Both the position numbers and the translations under genes were made by a program. From positions 1-6,001 of IMG/VR virus record IMGVR_UViG_2585427725_000002: DNA of 6,001 nt. One strand, 5' to 3'. Shown piece by piece: positions 1 through 6,001 of this stretch. Each line of letters begins with the position of its first letter. The stretch's first letter is position 1. Source of the DNA: a virus. Taxonomy: Duplodnaviria; Heunggongvirae; Uroviricota; Caudoviricetes. The notes under the pieces were generated by a model. It ran no database searches, was not told where the DNA came from, and saw nothing but the letters and a program-made list of their open reading frames with translations.

Positions 1-2
1 CC

Positions 3-188
3 CTGCCGATATCTTTCAGCAATACCAATTATTGTGTTGTTGCATCGTACGATAATGCACGGTCAGGTGCGTCAACAATGGTTAGTTTTGCAGCATTACC
101 TGTTTCACCATCGCAATTTTCCCTGATGTCATCTGTGACTGAGCAAGGAATAAATCCTTTTGCTTACTGGATTGCTTTTGGAGATTGA
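3..188 (+). CDS. Alternative tail-fibre C-terminal variable segment, 3' end only (5' part off-window); promoterless in this orientation
   Basis: Frame 3 is open from the window edge to TGA at 186..188 (61 codons, ending ...INPFAYWIAFGD). It sits directly upstream of, and in frame with, the plus-strand tfa gene (TGA TAA then ATG at 192), which is the arrangement expected for the silent fibre/tfa pair of an invertible segment. Not in the ORF track because it lacks a start inside the window. Confidence 0.45.
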   Translation: MPISFSNTNYCVVASYDNARSGASTMVSFAALPVSPSQFSLMSSVTEQGINPFAYWIAFGD

Positions 189-191
189 TAA

Positions 192-611
192 ATGGACAGA
201 TACTTCTATTCACAAAAAGAAAATGGTTTTTTTACCGATTTAAATAAAGCACCTTCAGATGCTGTTGAGATAACCACGGATGAATGGCTATCACTACTGG
301 ATGGTCAGGATAATGGCATGAAAATAGTCAGCAATCAGGAGGGATATCCGGTTTTGACAGAGCAACCACCTTTATCAAAAGAAAACCTTATTGCATTGGC
401 AGAGTTGAAAAAAGGAAAACTTATTAATGAAGCCAACGAGCACATGAACAGCAGGCAATGGCCTGGTAAAGCGGCTATTGGTCGTCTGAAAGGTGAGGAA
501 CTGGCGCAATATAATTTGTGGCTGGATTATCTGGACGCACTGGAACTGGTTGATTCCTCCAGTGCGCCAGATATTGAATGGCCTACGCCTCCGGCAGTTC
601 AGGCCAGATGA
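192..611 (+). CDS. Tail fibre assembly protein (Tfa/gpG/U-like chaperone), alternative copy
   Basis: 139-aa ORF with ATG at 192. The C-terminus (LDYLDALELVDSSSAPDIEWPTPP) carries the conserved Tfa C-terminal motif and parallels the C-terminus of the minus-strand tfa. It is convergent with that gene and overlaps it at 583..611. Confidence 0.8.
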   Translation: MDRYFYSQKENGFFTDLNKAPSDAVEITTDEWLSLLDGQDNGMKIVSNQEGYPVLTEQPPLSKENLIALAELKKGKLINEANEHMNSRQWPGKAAIGRLKGEELAQYNLWLDYLDALELVDSSSAPDIEWPTPPAVQAR

Positions 612-1185
612 CATCCGGCGCGGTGCTGGTATCTGTTGCCGTCACCGCGTCAATGTAATCCAGCACAGCGTTAAGTCGGGTGGTTTCTGCCTGCGTCAGC
701 TTCCGTCCGGCCTGTAGTTTCAGTTGAATCAGACTAATGGAAGCCATTGCTGCATCAATAAGTGACTGGCGCAGTGCTTCTGCCGCGTCTACTGCGGCAT
801 TATGCTGTGCCTCAGTATCTGTCACCCATTTCTCACCATCCCATTTATCGTATGGCGTTAACGGGGCGATAGTGGTTGTATTATCAGGGTAATCACCCGG
901 AGCTGTGATTTCTTTTGATTCTCCTGTTTCGGTGCTAAAGACGATTTCACCGCGATGGTCTGGCACATATTCCCATGAGTTAAAATCTGCAGATCGGCAG
1001 ATTGCATAACCAGTTTTGTATGAGCCAGGAGCATCTAAACAGGAACATGCCGGAATGCCGACACCCACAGCAAGATATTCAGTTGATGTGAAAATATATT
1101 CCCGTGTTTCACCATCATAGTTATAAACCGTAATATTTCCTGCCTGGGTGGCGATAAATTCGTTATTTAATACAGCGTAATCCAT
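583..1185 (-). CDS. Tail fibre assembly protein (Tfa/gpG/U-like chaperone)
   Basis: 200-aa ORF with ATG at 1185..1183. The C-terminus (LDYIDAVTATDTSTAPDVIWPELPEA) is the characteristic Tfa motif. Its start overlaps the fibre stop by 1 nt (TAATG), indicating translational coupling. Confidence 0.85.
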   Translation of the reverse strand: MDYAVLNNEFIATQAGNITVYNYDGETREYIFTSTEYLAVGVGIPACSCLDAPGSYKTGYAICRSADFNSWEYVPDHRGEIVFSTETGESKEITAPGDYPDNTTTIAPLTPYDKWDGEKWVTDTEAQHNAAVDAAEALRQSLIDAAMASISLIQLKLQAGRKLTQAETTRLNAVLDYIDAVTATDTSTAPDVIWPELPEA

Positions 1186-2000
1186 TATGCAGCCCTCACG
1201 ATATAATTAAAGGCAATGTTTCGAGGACGGTTTTCGTTTGCAGTTGGAACAACTCTGGAAGCATCAAATGTTACTCGCTTTGCATAACCACCTTTAATTG
1301 AATCAGATGAAGCATCTCCGATGACGCTGGTTGTAAAAACGCCAGAATCAGAAGGATAGGTATTAAACCTGACATCTACTAATGCACCAATTATATTTCG
1401 AATGGCATCGCCCTGTGATGCAAGCAAGCTACGGTTAGTATCAATTCCTCTTCCGTCATCCCAGCCACGAATAAACTCACCACGTAAATCAGGTAATTTA
1501 TTTGTCGGGTAAGCCTTTGCCAGTTCCGGGTATTCTTCAGCAGAAAAAGCCGCACCATTGCATTTCAGCCAGCCTGTTGGCGGAGTGGCTGAAGGCCACG
1601 GAACAGGGACACCAACAGGTAATGCAGAGCCTTCTCCCAAACCAAGGTTTTCGAGAGCCGTTGGTACCGTGCCGTCCGATTTGATATCACCAAACGGATT
1701 ATTGCGGCTCAGGTATTCAACAGCAAACCCCGATCCCAGCAATTCAACAAAACCGGGCAGATCACCATTATCAAGCACATCCCGTTGCGTTTTATCACTT
1801 ACAAACTGGGCCAGAGCTGCAGCAATAAAGCTGGCCTGCCGAATAACCTTATTGACTTGCGCACTGGAGGCTTTCCCTGCTGTAAATCCGGATAAAAGCG
1901 CGGGCAACGCTTCCCATTCCTCCTGCGATATAACATTGGCATTTCGATCCGTTGCAAACGCTTTAAAGTCATTTTTCGCCATCAGAGTAATACTCCCCAT
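1185..2000 (-). CDS. Short tail fibre protein with a constant N-terminus and an invertible C-terminal part
   Basis: 271-aa ORF. The C-terminal part has a tail-collar-like stretch ([22 protein letters not shown]...[13 protein letters not shown]), it lies immediately upstream of tfa, and the crossover site falls in frame at codons A115..E123. The true start may instead be Met7 (ATG at 1982..1980), which gives a TGATG coupling with the upstream gene. Confidence 0.85.
1632..1657. other. Site-specific inversion crossover site (hix/gix/cix/pix-like) for a serine invertase
   Basis: The 26-bp sequence TTCTCCCAAACCAAGGTTTTCGAGAG has the imperfect dyad AAACC-NN-GGTTT with a central AA, closely resembling hixL (TTCTTGAAAACCAAGGTTTTTGATAA, recalled from memory). 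It lies inside the fibre ORF, where it encodes LENLGLGE. Confidence 0.6.
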
Positions 2001-2662
2001 GCTCCTACATCAAAACCACTGATGAATTCGTTATCCATATCAAAACCAAAAAATTTTGAGCCTTCCGATGGGGTTTCCACCGAAGGTGTTTCAATGCCAC
2101 CCGCCCATACCCCGGCAGCTTTTACTGTGAGATACCCCTGTTTAATTGCCGCAATTAACTCACGCGATACATCTGAAATATCAGTATCAGGAAAGACCCA
2201 GACCGATATCGTCATGTCCTGGTTATCGACTATCTGCATTCGCAGCCCGGATCCTGCTGTTGCAGAGTCAAGAATTGCCGGAAGCGAATCATTCCGTCCA
2301 TCCCAGTTATTAATCGCAATCTTCGCTTTAAGAATGACACGATAAGTTTCATCGCTGAGGTACATGTATCCGGAATCAGGATCGTATGGTCCCTGCCATA
2401 CCCCCTGATCATATCCAAGCCCGTCGGTATCCCAGCTGAAATAGACACCTGAGATAGGCTGGCTGACAACACGGCTACGTCCGATCCACAATCCCAGAAT
2501 GTCAAGTTGCACACCAACCGCAGAGTCAATATCAAATGCAGTAATCAGCCCTCTGGTGGCAGCCGCAACATCAATAAGCGGCCGGGTCATCAGATCAACA
2601 TGCGCAAGAAATTTAGGTTTGGTGGCGTGGTAGTTCGTGATTAGTTCGGTGTATTTGCTCAT
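1982..2662 (-). CDS. Phage tail/baseplate protein I-like (P2 gpI / Mu gp48 family, DUF2313-type)
   Basis: 226-aa ORF placed between the baseplate J-like gene and the fibre gene, as in P2 (J-I-H) and Mu (gp47-gp48-S). Its start overlaps the J stop as ATGA. The assignment is by synteny and size; family membership is recalled, not searched. Confidence 0.65.
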
Positions 2663-3858
2663 GACTCCACCGTTATAACGATATTTTCCGGGGTACAGGA
2701 CGCAGATTCGTTGTATCTGATATCAATGTTTGATGACGACAAAGCCCCCGGGGATTTCCCAATCGTCAGTTCCTGAATATCGTAATAGCGTGCATTCCCG
2801 CCACTCACCACGCCAAGATTCGCCGGTGAGTAAATGCGACTTAAAAGGACCGAATCACCAATCGTCAAACTATTGATATAGTCGGAAATAGCCTGCTGGA
2901 TCTGCTGCCCTATCTGTGAGGTATAACCCGTAAAAACTTTTAATTTAATCCGGGCATAAACAGGCACATCACTGGAACGCGAGAATTTGATTACATGGGG
3001 ATTGCCGTATTTATCCGGAACCGTAACGGATGTTGTACCGTGAGTGGCTGTCCCCTGGCCTTTATTCCCTCTGATAGCCTGAGCAATATCCGTCACATCA
3101 CCGCCATCCACAATTACAGCAACAGAGTGTGGCGGTAACCCGTTACCGTCCTCCGAACCAGTATCGTTTTCATAGAGTTTGTGGCGGGTTACACCGGGAA
3201 CATTAGAAACAGCACCATCCAGTGCTTCAAATGGGGTTATTGATGGCAACGCAACACTTTGCGACTGGCGGATACGTAACTCAGCATCAGTTTCTGCCGG
3301 AGAGCCAACAGTAGCCGCAGCAGGATTAGTTACCGAAACCCAGCCACGGGTTGGCGTATTAATTTCAGTGATAGTTCCAGCCAGCGCCGCCACTGCACCA
3401 CTGACGGAACATGTTGCGGTCGCCATCACTGTACCATCCACGCCGACCACCACTGAAGCAGGCAAACGCCATATCACATTATTACTGTCTTTCACGCTGC
3501 CATTAATGATGGTTGTTCCGGCAGTTCCTGTAAGAAGCAAATCAACCGTAGAGTTCGTCGCGCCTTTACGTGAAATACCATTTATTTTCACGTTACTGGT
3601 CAGTGCAGCCCCATAGCCGGTTGCCGGTGAAAAACAGTTGTAGACAGTTATCGCCATATTATTGGCATCATGAATCGCCAGCGCCATCAGAGCCACCATC
3701 TGGCCGTCTTTGCTGTCCGGTTCGAGGTAGGCATCACTGCCATAAATCTGCTGAAAATAGCTAATCAGGGTGCTGAGTATCGTCTGATAATCAGGCGCAC
3801 TGATCCCCTCCGCGGTTACCTTTGCAGATAAACCGAGAGAATCAAGGTTCAGAGCCAT
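2659..3858 (-). CDS. Baseplate J-like protein (P2 gpJ / Mu gp47 / T4 gp6 family)
   Basis: 399-aa ORF with a GGAGG ribosome-binding site about 5 nt upstream of the ATG. Its size and position between the W-like and I-like genes fit the family. Start overlaps the upstream stop (TAATG). Confidence 0.8.
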   Translation of the reverse strand: MALNLDSLGLSAKVTAEGISAPDYQTILSTLISYFQQIYGSDAYLEPDSKDGQMVALMALAIHDANNMAITVYNCFSPATGYGAALTSNVKINGISRKGATNSTVDLLLTGTAGTTIINGSVKDSNNVIWRLPASVVVGVDGTVMATATCSVSGAVAALAGTITEINTPTRGWVSVTNPAAATVGSPAETDAELRIRQSQSVALPSITPFEALDGAVSNVPGVTRHKLYENDTGSEDGNGLPPHSVAVIVDGGDVTDIAQAIRGNKGQGTATHGTTSVTVPDKYGNPHVIKFSRSSDVPVYARIKLKVFTGYTSQIGQQIQQAISDYINSLTIGDSVLLSRIYSPANLGVVSGGNARYYDIQELTIGKSPGALSSSNIDIRYNESASCTPENIVITVES

Positions 3859-4211
3859 TACGCCTCCGATGTAACAGTCGTTATTCCATAGAGAGTGTCG
3901 ATTTCAGCGGAAAACATGACACGTCGGGTCGTGGTATCCACCGTCGTATTGAAAGAGAGGATTGATTTAACGCCCTGCGTTTCGAGGATGCGCTTACGGA
4001 TCGCCAGGTTGTAAGTTTCTGGTTTTTGCCTGCCCAGCACGGACTGGATCCACGGTGTTCCCTCTGTGGTATCAAGAAACCATTGCCCATACCACAATTC
4101 GAATCGCGTTTTCACAGCCTGCGCTACGGCCTCAGGCGAGTTAATCAGCCAGGTGTCATCACCGCTGCCAAAGGTGTAATCGCCATCGGCGTCTTCACGT
4201 CTGTATCGCAT
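3858..4211 (-). CDS. Baseplate wedge protein, gpW/gp25-like (Mu gp46-like)
   Basis: 117-aa ORF located between the spike V-like and J-like genes, with the size typical of gpW/gp25. It is translationally coupled on both sides. Assignment rests mainly on synteny. Confidence 0.6.
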   Translation of the reverse strand: MRYRREDADGDYTFGSGDDTWLINSPEAVAQAVKTRFELWYGQWFLDTTEGTPWIQSVLGRQKPETYNLAIRKRILETQGVKSILSFNTTVDTTTRRVMFSAEIDTLYGITTVTSEA

Positions 4212-4963
4212 CAGTTTACCCCGTCGGTACTGCTTCCACCACGCTGAACACCACCATGAGTGTGTGTATCATCGATTGGCTTGCCATTAGCCTTCACGCT
4301 CCCCAAAAACTCAACAGCACCAGTGATTTTTGAAGCCACACCAGAAACCACAGACCCCACCATGCCCCCCATCCAGGTTAACAGGCCATGAATGGTTACT
4401 TTCTCAGAAAAATCAGCCAGAGGGGCAACCACATCAAGACCACCTGGAGCGACAATTTTAATTTTCCTGGTATCAGGATTAAGCTCAAAATAGGTGCTGC
4501 CGTCATCACTACGCAACTGTGTGGCACTGGTATTAATACCGCTAATCTTCCTTGCCTGCGACTGGGGACCGACAATACAAAACGCATCCGATAAATCATG
4601 CATTCTGTCATCGACCGACTCCTGTATCCCGCCACTCTGCCACCAGAAATCAATACAACGATCGGCAAAAATCACCAAACATTCATCACCGGCTTTAACT
4701 GGGAACGTTAGCGTACATCCTCCGCCGCGCGGGAATACCACTGGCACATCCACCAGCAATGGGTAATTTTTGGTAATGCGGTTGCCGTCATTATCCTTTT
4801 CAACCGAACGGATAGCAGGCTGCACAACTGCCGTCACCGCATCAGGATCGAATGACTGAATAATGCCAGGCAAGGCGACACGGATCTGGTTCTTTGTTGT
4901 TTCCCGTTCAGATTTGAATGTTTCGGCAAGGTCGCCGCTGCGGGTCTGGTCAGATACTGCCAT
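4211..4963 (-). CDS. Baseplate assembly protein V / central spike (P2 gpV, Mu gp45-like)
   Basis: 250-aa ORF with a GGAG ribosome-binding site 8 nt upstream of the ATG. It contains the OB-fold-like motif FPVKAGDECLVIFADRCIDFWW, comparable to the GDEvLVxF motif of Phage_base_V proteins, and a His-rich C-terminal tip (DDTHTHGG). Confidence 0.75.
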   Translation of the reverse strand: MAVSDQTRSGDLAETFKSERETTKNQIRVALPGIIQSFDPDAVTAVVQPAIRSVEKDNDGNRITKNYPLLVDVPVVFPRGGGCTLTFPVKAGDECLVIFADRCIDFWWQSGGIQESVDDRMHDLSDAFCIVGPQSQARKISGINTSATQLRSDDGSTYFELNPDTRKIKIVAPGGLDVVAPLADFSEKVTIHGLLTWMGGMVGSVVSGVASKITGAVEFLGSVKANGKPIDDTHTHGGVQRGGSSTDGVN

Positions 4964-4980
4964 TTAGTAGGCTCCAGAAA

Positions 4981-5006
4981 GCAAAAAACCCGCCGAAGCG
5001 GGTTTG
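4981..5006 (-). terminator. Rho-independent terminator (minus-strand reading)
   Basis: The minus-strand transcript reads AAACCCGC-UUCG-GCGGGUUU followed by UUUGC: an 8-bp GC-rich stem with a UUCG tetraloop and a U-tract. It lies between the truncated upstream ORF stop (5023) and the V-gene ribosome-binding site. Confidence 0.6.
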
Positions 5007-5022
5007 ATAACGTTAATTTTAT

Positions 5023-5144
5023 TCATGAAACTCTAGCAGACTTTAGCTGTTCCCAGCGCTCAAAATAGAGTTCAGCAGCCTCGATTGCATCCTGTCCCAT
5101 CTCTTTCGAAACAGTCACATTCGTCAGATCATAGTCAGCTTCAT
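5023..5144 (-). pseudogene. 3' fragment of an unidentified gene interrupted by the IS2 insertion
   Basis: One minus-strand frame stays open from the IS2 junction (5144) to TGA at 5025..5023, about 39 codons ending ...ELYFERWEQLKSARVS. The other two frames stop immediately. The upstream part would lie beyond the IS2. Confidence 0.35.
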
Positions 5145-5185
5145 TGGATTTGCCCCTATATTTCCAGACATCTGTTATCACTTAA
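5145..5185. repeat. IS2 right terminal inverted repeat (IRR, about 41 bp)
   Basis: The terminal sequence matches the remembered IS2 IRR. The exact inner boundary is approximate. Confidence 0.7.
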
Positions 5186-6001
5186 CCCATTACAAGCCCG
5201 CTGCCGCAGATATTCCCGTGGCGAGCGATAACCCAGCGCACTATGCGGATGCCATTCGTTATAATGCTCGAACGCCTCTGCAAGGTTCTTTGCTGCCGTT
5301 AACCCGTCTGGTTTGGGCATGATACTGATGTAGTCACGCTTTATCGTTTTCACGAAGCTCTCTGCTATTCCGTTACTCTCCGGACTCCGCACCGCCGTGT
5401 TCTTCGGTTCAAGTCCCAACATCCGGGCGAACTGGCGTGTTTCATTAGCCCGGTAGCATGAACCATTATCCGTCAGCCACTCCACTGGAGACGACGGAAG
5501 ATCGTTGCCGAAGCGGCGTTCCACCGCTCCCAGCATGACGTCCTGTACTGTTTCACTGTTGAAGCCGCCGGTAGTGACCGCCCAGTGCAGTGCCTCACGA
5601 TCACAGCAGTCCAGCGCGAACGTGACACGCAGTCTCTCTCCGTTATCACAGCAGAACTCGAACCCGTCAGAGCACCATCGCTGATTGCTTTCTTTCACGG
5701 CCACTCTGCCTGTATGTGCCCGTTTCGATGGCGGTACAGCAGGTTTTCGCTCAAGCAACAGCGCATTCTGGCGCATGATCCGGTAAACACGTTTGGCATT
5801 GATCGCAGGCATACCATCAAGTTCTGCCTGTCTGCGAAGCAGCGCCCATACCCGACGATAACCATACGTGGGCAGCTCTCCGATAACATGGTGTATACGG
5901 AGAAGCACATCCGTATCATCAGTGTGACGACTGCGGCGGCCATCCATCCAGTCATCGGTTCGTCTGAGAATGACGTGCAACTGCGCACGCGACACCCGGA
6001 G
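5156..6001 (-). CDS. insD: IS2 transposase OrfB (InsD), N-terminus off-window
   Basis: The translation ([26 protein letters not shown]...WCSDGFEF...[10 protein letters not shown]...[14 protein letters not shown]...RCLEI, stop TAG at 5158..5156) shows the IS3-family DDE motif and matches IS2 InsD as I remember it. The track's leading M at 5995 is a GTG, an in-frame Val; the real start lies upstream, off-window. Confidence 0.9.

Follow-up and report, generated by a model that had tools for sequence, protein, structure and literature searches.

A compact tail-fibre gene, probably governed by an e14-type Pin switch, in a Brunovirus-like Escherichia coli prophage

Introduction

Can a phage tail-fibre gene of only 271 codons be a complete gene, and is the receptor-binding half of its product exchanged by DNA inversion? 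Both questions are raised by a minus-strand ORF within a 6,001-nucleotide stretch of viral DNA (positions 1 to 6,001 of the IMG/VR record IMGVR_UViG_2585427725_000002), which in its entirety is referred to here as the window. An earlier interpretation based on the letters of the DNA (the sequence-only reading) had described the ORF as an unusually short tail fibre with its collar-like domain in a switchable part, and had pointed to the compact side-fibre cassettes of e14-type elements. Here we report a computational analysis that followed up this interpretation. We conclude that the product of the ORF is very probably the baseplate fibre of a temperate, Brunovirus-like myovirus, carried as a prophage by E. 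coli, and that the gene is equipped with an e14-type (P-segment) Pin switch. The locus is an already well-understood system of low novelty, i.e., an ordinary E. coli prophage fibre gene with a flippable 1.8-kb segment.

Results

In order to establish the nature of the ORF, its translation was compared with protein families and solved structures. Pfam, PHROG and PDB sequence matches were found to span both halves of the protein, and the homology search that the sequence-only reading had proposed placed the 271-aa product among fibres, as that reading had supposed. Judged by homology, the ORF at 1185-2000 is a real gene and encodes a phage tail fibre. In RefSeq, annotation of the homologues begins at MAKNDF, which corresponds to Met7 of the 271-residue translation. 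The codon for this residue, the ATG at 1982, shares nucleotides with the TGA stop of the upstream DUF2612 gene; the fibre product is therefore probably 265 aa long, not 271. Translational coupling of the fibre start to the wedge gene was seen in every relative.

Database matches to the fibre numbered at least 8000 at E <= 1e-5. The best 120 of these were 262-296 aa in length, and all but one of the 120 (119/120) were full-length family members. The description of the fibre as unusually short was not upheld by this range, nor by the lengths of other fibres, i.e., 209 aa for StfP of e14, 381 aa for that of SEN34 and ~280 aa for that of Pam3. By these comparisons, the fibre is short only relative to P2 H and Mu S, and its length is normal for its lineage.

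The features located in the window are collected in Table 1. Its minus-strand genes constitute the distal end of a phage tail operon, which in intact relatives is accompanied by tail sheath (PHROG E 1e-134), hub, tape-measure protein, head genes and integrase. Judged by its genes, the backbone is that of a Brunovirus-like temperate myovirus; in a recent survey, a deposited E. coli phage that has the same tail module is listed with the Salmonella phage SEN34 as its closest classified relative. No other recognizable receptor-binding protein was found in the intact relatives. Given that the fibre is the sole recognizable protein of this kind, we consider it to be the main fibre of the contractile tail rather than an accessory side fibre, and the earlier "side-fibre" label to be a misnomer. 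For homologues of the 117-aa wedge subunit, some database records give "putative oxidoreductase" or "thioredoxin domain-containing protein", labels that appear to be erroneous. The IS2 copy cuts the prophage ~170 bp upstream of the spike gene, and homology to related prophages ends at 4995-5145. Because IS2 interrupts the prophage, the element may be defective, and its fibre may never reach a virion.

Table 1. Features located in the 6,001-nucleotide window.
Feature	Position	Strand	Evidence or remarks
Alternative distal part Sv', 3' end, 61 codons + stop, ...INPFAYWIAFGD	3-185, stop 186-188	plus	Gp53-like_C PF21882, E 4.7e-6
Second, currently silent TfaP-like chaperone, 139 aa	192-611	plus	Caudo_TAP PF02413, E 2e-25; 54% identical to K-12 TfaP
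TfaE-like assembly chaperone for the expressed tip, 200 aa	583-1185	minus	Caudo_TAP PF02413, E 4e-32; 89% identical to K-12 TfaE
Tail-fibre gene	1185-2000	minus	Longest ORF, uninterrupted, 271 aa; PHROG tail-fibre families match both halves
Exchangeable distal part Sv, 148 aa + stop	1185-1631	minus	Collar domain with inserted hypervariable region
Hypervariable ~62-aa insert between collar halves	1242-1427, aa 186-247	minus	36% mean identity
Phage Tail Collar core	1470-1613, aa 130-177	minus	PF07484, E 2.5e-15, 56.6 bits against a cut-off of 24
Din-family (pix) crossover site, 26 bp, TTCTCCCAAACC-AA-GGTTTTCGAGAG	1632-1657, core 1644-1645		Two 12-bp half-sites and a 2-bp core
Junction segment before the crossover site	1632-1712	minus	~28 residues common to K-12 e14 StfP (alignment)
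N-terminal ~90-aa lineage-specific adaptor	1713-1982	minus	SEN34 match, conservation, N-terminal matches to PHROG 11303 and 1396
DUF2612 / "baseplate wedge 1" protein	1982-2662	minus	Pfam E 3e-47; 81% identical to SEN34 homologue
Baseplate J protein	2659-3858	minus	
Wedge subunit, 117 aa	3858-4211	minus	PHROG baseplate wedge, E 7e-37; without Pfam match
Gp138-like spike	4211-4963	minus	
IS2 copy (IS3 family)	~5128-6001		99% identical to annotated IS2 elements

The crossover site within the fibre gene was present as a single copy in the window, against 0.03 expected from shuffles. The experimentally determined inverted repeat of the e14 P segment, CCTTCTCCCAAACCAA (PMC12529663), was present exactly, at 1630-1645. 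The core dinucleotide is part of codon L119 in the numbering of the 271-aa ORF, and the site as a whole lies within the codons for LENLGLGEG. Given that the inner half-site is identical at both segment ends, the first residue altered on inversion would be residue 124. This leaves a constant part of 123 residues, or 117 when counted from Met7, and an exchangeable part of 148 aa, in good agreement with the "roughly 116" and "about 150" residues of the sequence-only reading. The collar-bearing distal portion likewise proved to be the switchable part, the Pfam Collar match lying entirely beyond residue 124.

The partner site and the pin gene are located just outside the window and were seen in relatives only. 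In close complete genomes, pinE is followed by a site ending in ...TT GGTTTGGGAGAA and then by the Gp53-like part, and the partner site was found at the equivalent place in the relatives' loci L001, L002, L004, L005 and L007 as well as in K-12. From this layout, the partner site is placed ~170 bp before window position 1, giving a segment of ~1.8 kb. In the relatives and in K-12 e14, the paired sites are inverted with respect to one another. Relatives have pinE annotated immediately adjacent to the segment, in some cases with a frameshift.

To compare the regions of the fibre, mean identities to the window as reference were computed over the 119 full-length members among the best 120 matches. 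The N-terminal 90 aa, i.e., the adaptor, showed 98% mean identity among these close relatives, and the junction 91%. PDB sequence and profile searches found no similarity between the constant N-terminus and solved structures. An AF2 monomer model of the 265-aa product, made from a 35-sequence alignment, had a pLDDT of 54.6 and a pTM of 0.24, with helices in the constant part at low confidence; the adaptor is thus predicted to be mainly helical, a prediction to which we attach little weight. In other phages, the short fibre of phiTE binds wedge 1, and gp24 of Pam3 docks through an N-terminal helical bundle (PMC9608196). By analogy, the adaptor may dock on the baseplate wedge, with the DUF2612 protein as the candidate docking partner. 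An apparent homology of the N-terminal half to the fibre of the P2-like phage 500465-1 was also considered, and was rejected on the grounds that the alignment consisted of weak filler.

The exchangeable part was homologous to the distal tip of T4 gp37 (PDB 2XGF), with an E value of 2e-16 that became 2e-24 with a profile, and also to T4 gp12. The top PDB sequence match was the short tail fibre of phiTE, over a region that is unmodelled in that map. Within this part, the first collar half showed 93% mean identity to the window across the 119 relatives. The C-terminal strand returns to the collar, and its ending aligns with the C-terminus of T4 gp37, the last 18 aa showing 96% identity in the same set. 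The stretch between the two collar halves fell into at least 31 types among the 119 close relatives, with HxH motifs like those of T4 gp37 and gp12 in 3/31; no HxH metal-binding motifs were found in the insert of the window. The identities of the regions, i.e., 36% for the insert against 93-98% for its flanks, indicate that the tip consists of a collar scaffold bearing a short hypervariable insert. By this variability and by analogy with related tips, the ~62-aa insert is probably the receptor contact.

Each chaperone gene lies immediately downstream of its own fibre part. The 3' ends of the two convergent genes share 29 nt (583-611), exactly as those of tfaP and tfaE do in K-12 e14.

The alternative C-terminus described in the sequence-only reading, ending in ...INPFAYWIAFGD, was found where expected on the plus strand (Table 1). 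It is cut by the start of the window, and its full version is present in relatives. When the constant part was joined to this alternative tip at the core dinucleotide, an open frame of 240 aa was obtained (234 from Met7), ending in ...AYWIAFGD. Both distal sets are accordingly in frame with the constant part, one as seen in the window and the other as reconstructed. Pfam assigns one tip to Collar and the other to Gp53-like_C, and the two are by this assignment predicted to have unrelated folds. A loose resemblance between their C-terminal ends had been remarked upon earlier; it did not exceed chance level, in that 29% of shuffles reached the best local ungapped score.

A common fibre C-terminal motif read by the conserved C-terminal domain of Tfa was considered and rejected, as the literature assigns fibre binding elsewhere: in Tfa-type chaperones, the variable N-terminal domain binds the fibre, and the conserved C-terminal domain trimerizes (PMC9608196).

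Annotation pipelines call an ORF of 100-132 aa that runs from the pin-proximal spacer through the outer half-site into the silent Gp53-like part (L002 5790-6188; L001 5886-6188), window positions 3-188 being the 3' end of this ORF. It is the counterpart of K-12 "StfE2", a protein claimed to block T2 adsorption.

To determine whether the segment occurs in both orientations in nature, all complete E. coli genomes were searched for both junction types. The constant part was contiguous with the collar tip in 61 complete genomes and with the Gp53-like tip in 12. In two O103:H2 strains, 12009 and 129, the segment was oppositely arranged, with flanking gene order alike on both sides; these strains have identical protein accessions for the spike, the 117-aa wedge subunit, baseplate J, the DUF2612 protein and both chaperones. 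The natural occurrence of both orientations shows that the crossover site is functional in this family, and the role earlier ascribed to it was corroborated at the level of the family, as distinct from that of the present strain. In this particular strain, the switch may be active. The pinE gene was annotated as frameshifted in both O103:H2 strains (129: L004 5690-6243; 12009: L005 706-1259). For the segment to lie in opposite orientations nonetheless, either another Pin-type invertase must have inverted it in trans, or the inversion must have preceded the frameshift. Trans inversion by Pin paralogues has been demonstrated for K-12 (PMC12529663), and the inversion, or phase variation, of the e14 P segment has been measured directly (PMC4272514).

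Hundreds of "partial" fibre proteins from draft assemblies stop at residue 111-113, which is the crossover (e.g., P0172, P0174, P0176-P0178). Assemblies evidently break at the invertible segment, a pattern that is expected of a segment that is repeated or present in mixed orientation. Within the segment, five promoter-like sites were found against 5.3 expected, and this absence of an excess fits expression from the upstream operon only.

Discussion

The data are very probably explained by a phage-encoded switch of the fibre tip, the operation of which can be pictured as follows. Transcription and translation would enter the fibre gene from the late tail operon via the DUF2612 wedge gene. Of the fixed first ~117 residues, a helical adaptor of ~90 aa would dock on the baseplate, and a short junction would follow. 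A Pin-type serine invertase, encoded just past the window and replaceable by paralogues able to act in trans, would recombine the crossover site with its inverted partner ~1.8 kb away. In the present orientation, the constant part is fused to the 148-aa collar resembling T4 gp37 and gp12, the ~60-aa insert of which would be the likely receptor contact, and the co-oriented TfaE-like chaperone would fold the fibre trimer. In the inverted orientation, the constant part would be joined in frame to a Gp53-like tip of ~117 aa, giving a fibre of ~234-240 aa that would be co-expressed with the other chaperone. Inversion would thereby alter the host range.

An alternative is that the switch is kept mainly for the benefit of the host, as an anti-phage device like that of K-12 e14, the inverted state of which gives StfP2 and StfE2 and lowers the adsorption of T2 and other phages (PMC12529663). 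The window does match the K-12 post-inversion state, in that its constant part with the collar tip is StfP2-like, and relatives carry an ORF of 100-132 aa, annotated as "gp53-like domain-containing protein" and StfE2-like, that begins just outside the segment, by pin. Moreover, the prophage is damaged by IS2, yet the switch genes are intact. However, the claim for K-12 stands on one study with over-expression and docking (PMC12529663), the window holds only the last 61 codons of the StfE2-like ORF, and the Gp53-like tip is only ~25-31% identical to K-12 StfP. The locus also occurs in apparently complete prophages, where a phage role suffices. We consider such a host function unlikely. A more specific form of the idea, to which we would give slightly less credence again, is that the switch of this IS2-crippled prophage has been retained by its host as a recombinase-controlled anti-phage device, the StfP2- and StfE2-like products of which would mask outer-membrane receptors. 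If a host anti-phage function were true, the more than 30 types of collar insert would reflect selection by competing phages and not the host range of the prophage itself.

It is also conceivable, though very improbable, that the short ORF is a non-functional, truncated remnant of a longer fibre gene like P2 H or Mu S. The ORF falls well short of the 502 aa of the 500465-1 fibre, which has the same distal cassette, and the prophage in the window is disrupted by IS2. Against this, the best 120 of at least 8000 matches share the length range given above, the N-terminus is 98% conserved, and the start is coupled to the wedge gene in every relative. The fibre N-terminus also matches fibre N-terminal PHROGs from profile position 1, and the same gene order is shared by a complete prophage of ~40 kb and by phage genomes that have been deposited. 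The reading as a truncated pseudogene was therefore rejected on length conservation and gene coupling. Finally, contractile-tail genes with an invertible fibre, in an element that IS2 truncates in the window, recall a tailocin that switches its killing spectrum, for which carotovoricin Er is a known precedent (cited in PMC4272514), but in relatives the modules for head, packaging, replication and integrase are all complete, and related genomes have been deposited as those of phages, making this explanation the least credible of all.

With the fibre regarded as the invertible baseplate fibre of a temperate phage, the importance of the locus lies mostly in its correct annotation, as a classical Pin/e14 host-range switch grafted onto a different, Brunovirus-like backbone. 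The fibre itself reduces to an adaptor of ~90 aa, a crossover junction and an exchangeable tip. The conserved flanks of the ~60-aa insert, together with the LGLGEG junction, would be natural splice points for the engineering of receptor specificity.

Comparison with Known Systems

The collar of the expressed tip is homologous to those of the T4 gp37 tip and gp12 (PDB 2XGF, 1OCY, 5IV5; E 2e-16 to 2e-24) and has the same C-terminal ending. It differs from them in that the insert comprises only ~60 aa, without a long needle or HxH, and in having a chaperone of Tfa (lambda gpK) type instead of gp38/gp57. In architecture, the fibre resembles the "simplified tail fibre" of Pam3, gp24/gp25 (PMC9608196), a cyanophage fibre of ~280 aa with a solved structure, in which a helical domain at the N-terminus serves for docking, the distal receptor-binding domain is compact and a Tfa-like chaperone is present. 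This likeness is architectural only: instead of a collar, the Pam3 fibre bears a distal domain that is TNF-like and glycine-rich, it lacks an inversion switch, and its sequence showed no similarity to that of the window fibre.

With the Mu G (gin), P1 C (cin) and P2-like systems, the locus shares a serine invertase, a site inside the fibre gene and alternative C-parts that each have a Tfa-type chaperone. The constant parts of those systems, however, comprise several hundred residues, as opposed to ~117 aa here. The exact tip of the window (98% identical) ends the 502-aa fibre of the P2-like phage 500465-1 (Peduoviridae; L006 8296-9804), beside a DNA invertase, and was also found on a 296-aa variant of the constant part. 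These two occurrences indicate that the cassette moves between phages at the LGLGEG junction. On this sequence comparison, the crossover junction is the point at which unrelated phage backbones have exchanged the cassette.

The backbone is best compared with that of SEN34 (Brunovirus), with which it has in common the order of the tail genes, the wedge protein (81% identical) and the first 90 aa of the fibre (68% identical). In contrast, the SEN34 fibre is 381 aa long, with another distal part and a single small chaperone, and it is without an invertase or an alternative cassette.

The switch itself is closest to the K-12 e14 P segment, with its order ycfK/stfP-tfaP-tfaE-stfE-pinE and its two opposed sets of tip and chaperone in ~1.8 kb. 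The e14 element has the crossover repeat found in the window, an stfE whose collar N-half is nearly identical, and a StfP that shares the junction. Together with the 89% identity to TfaE, these features bear out the earlier suggestion of an e14-type cassette. The differences lie in the constant N-terminal ~90 aa, which are unrelated, and in the upstream baseplate gene, which is DUF2313 (ymfQ) in e14 as opposed to DUF2612 here. Furthermore, the Gp53-like tip is ~25-31% identical to StfP and its chaperone 54% identical to its counterpart, and the silent stfE carries another collar insert, with HxH, whereas the insert of the window is without it. K-12 is normally in the opposite orientation, and the arrangement in the window corresponds to the K-12 post-inversion state, termed "StfP2" in PMC12529663.
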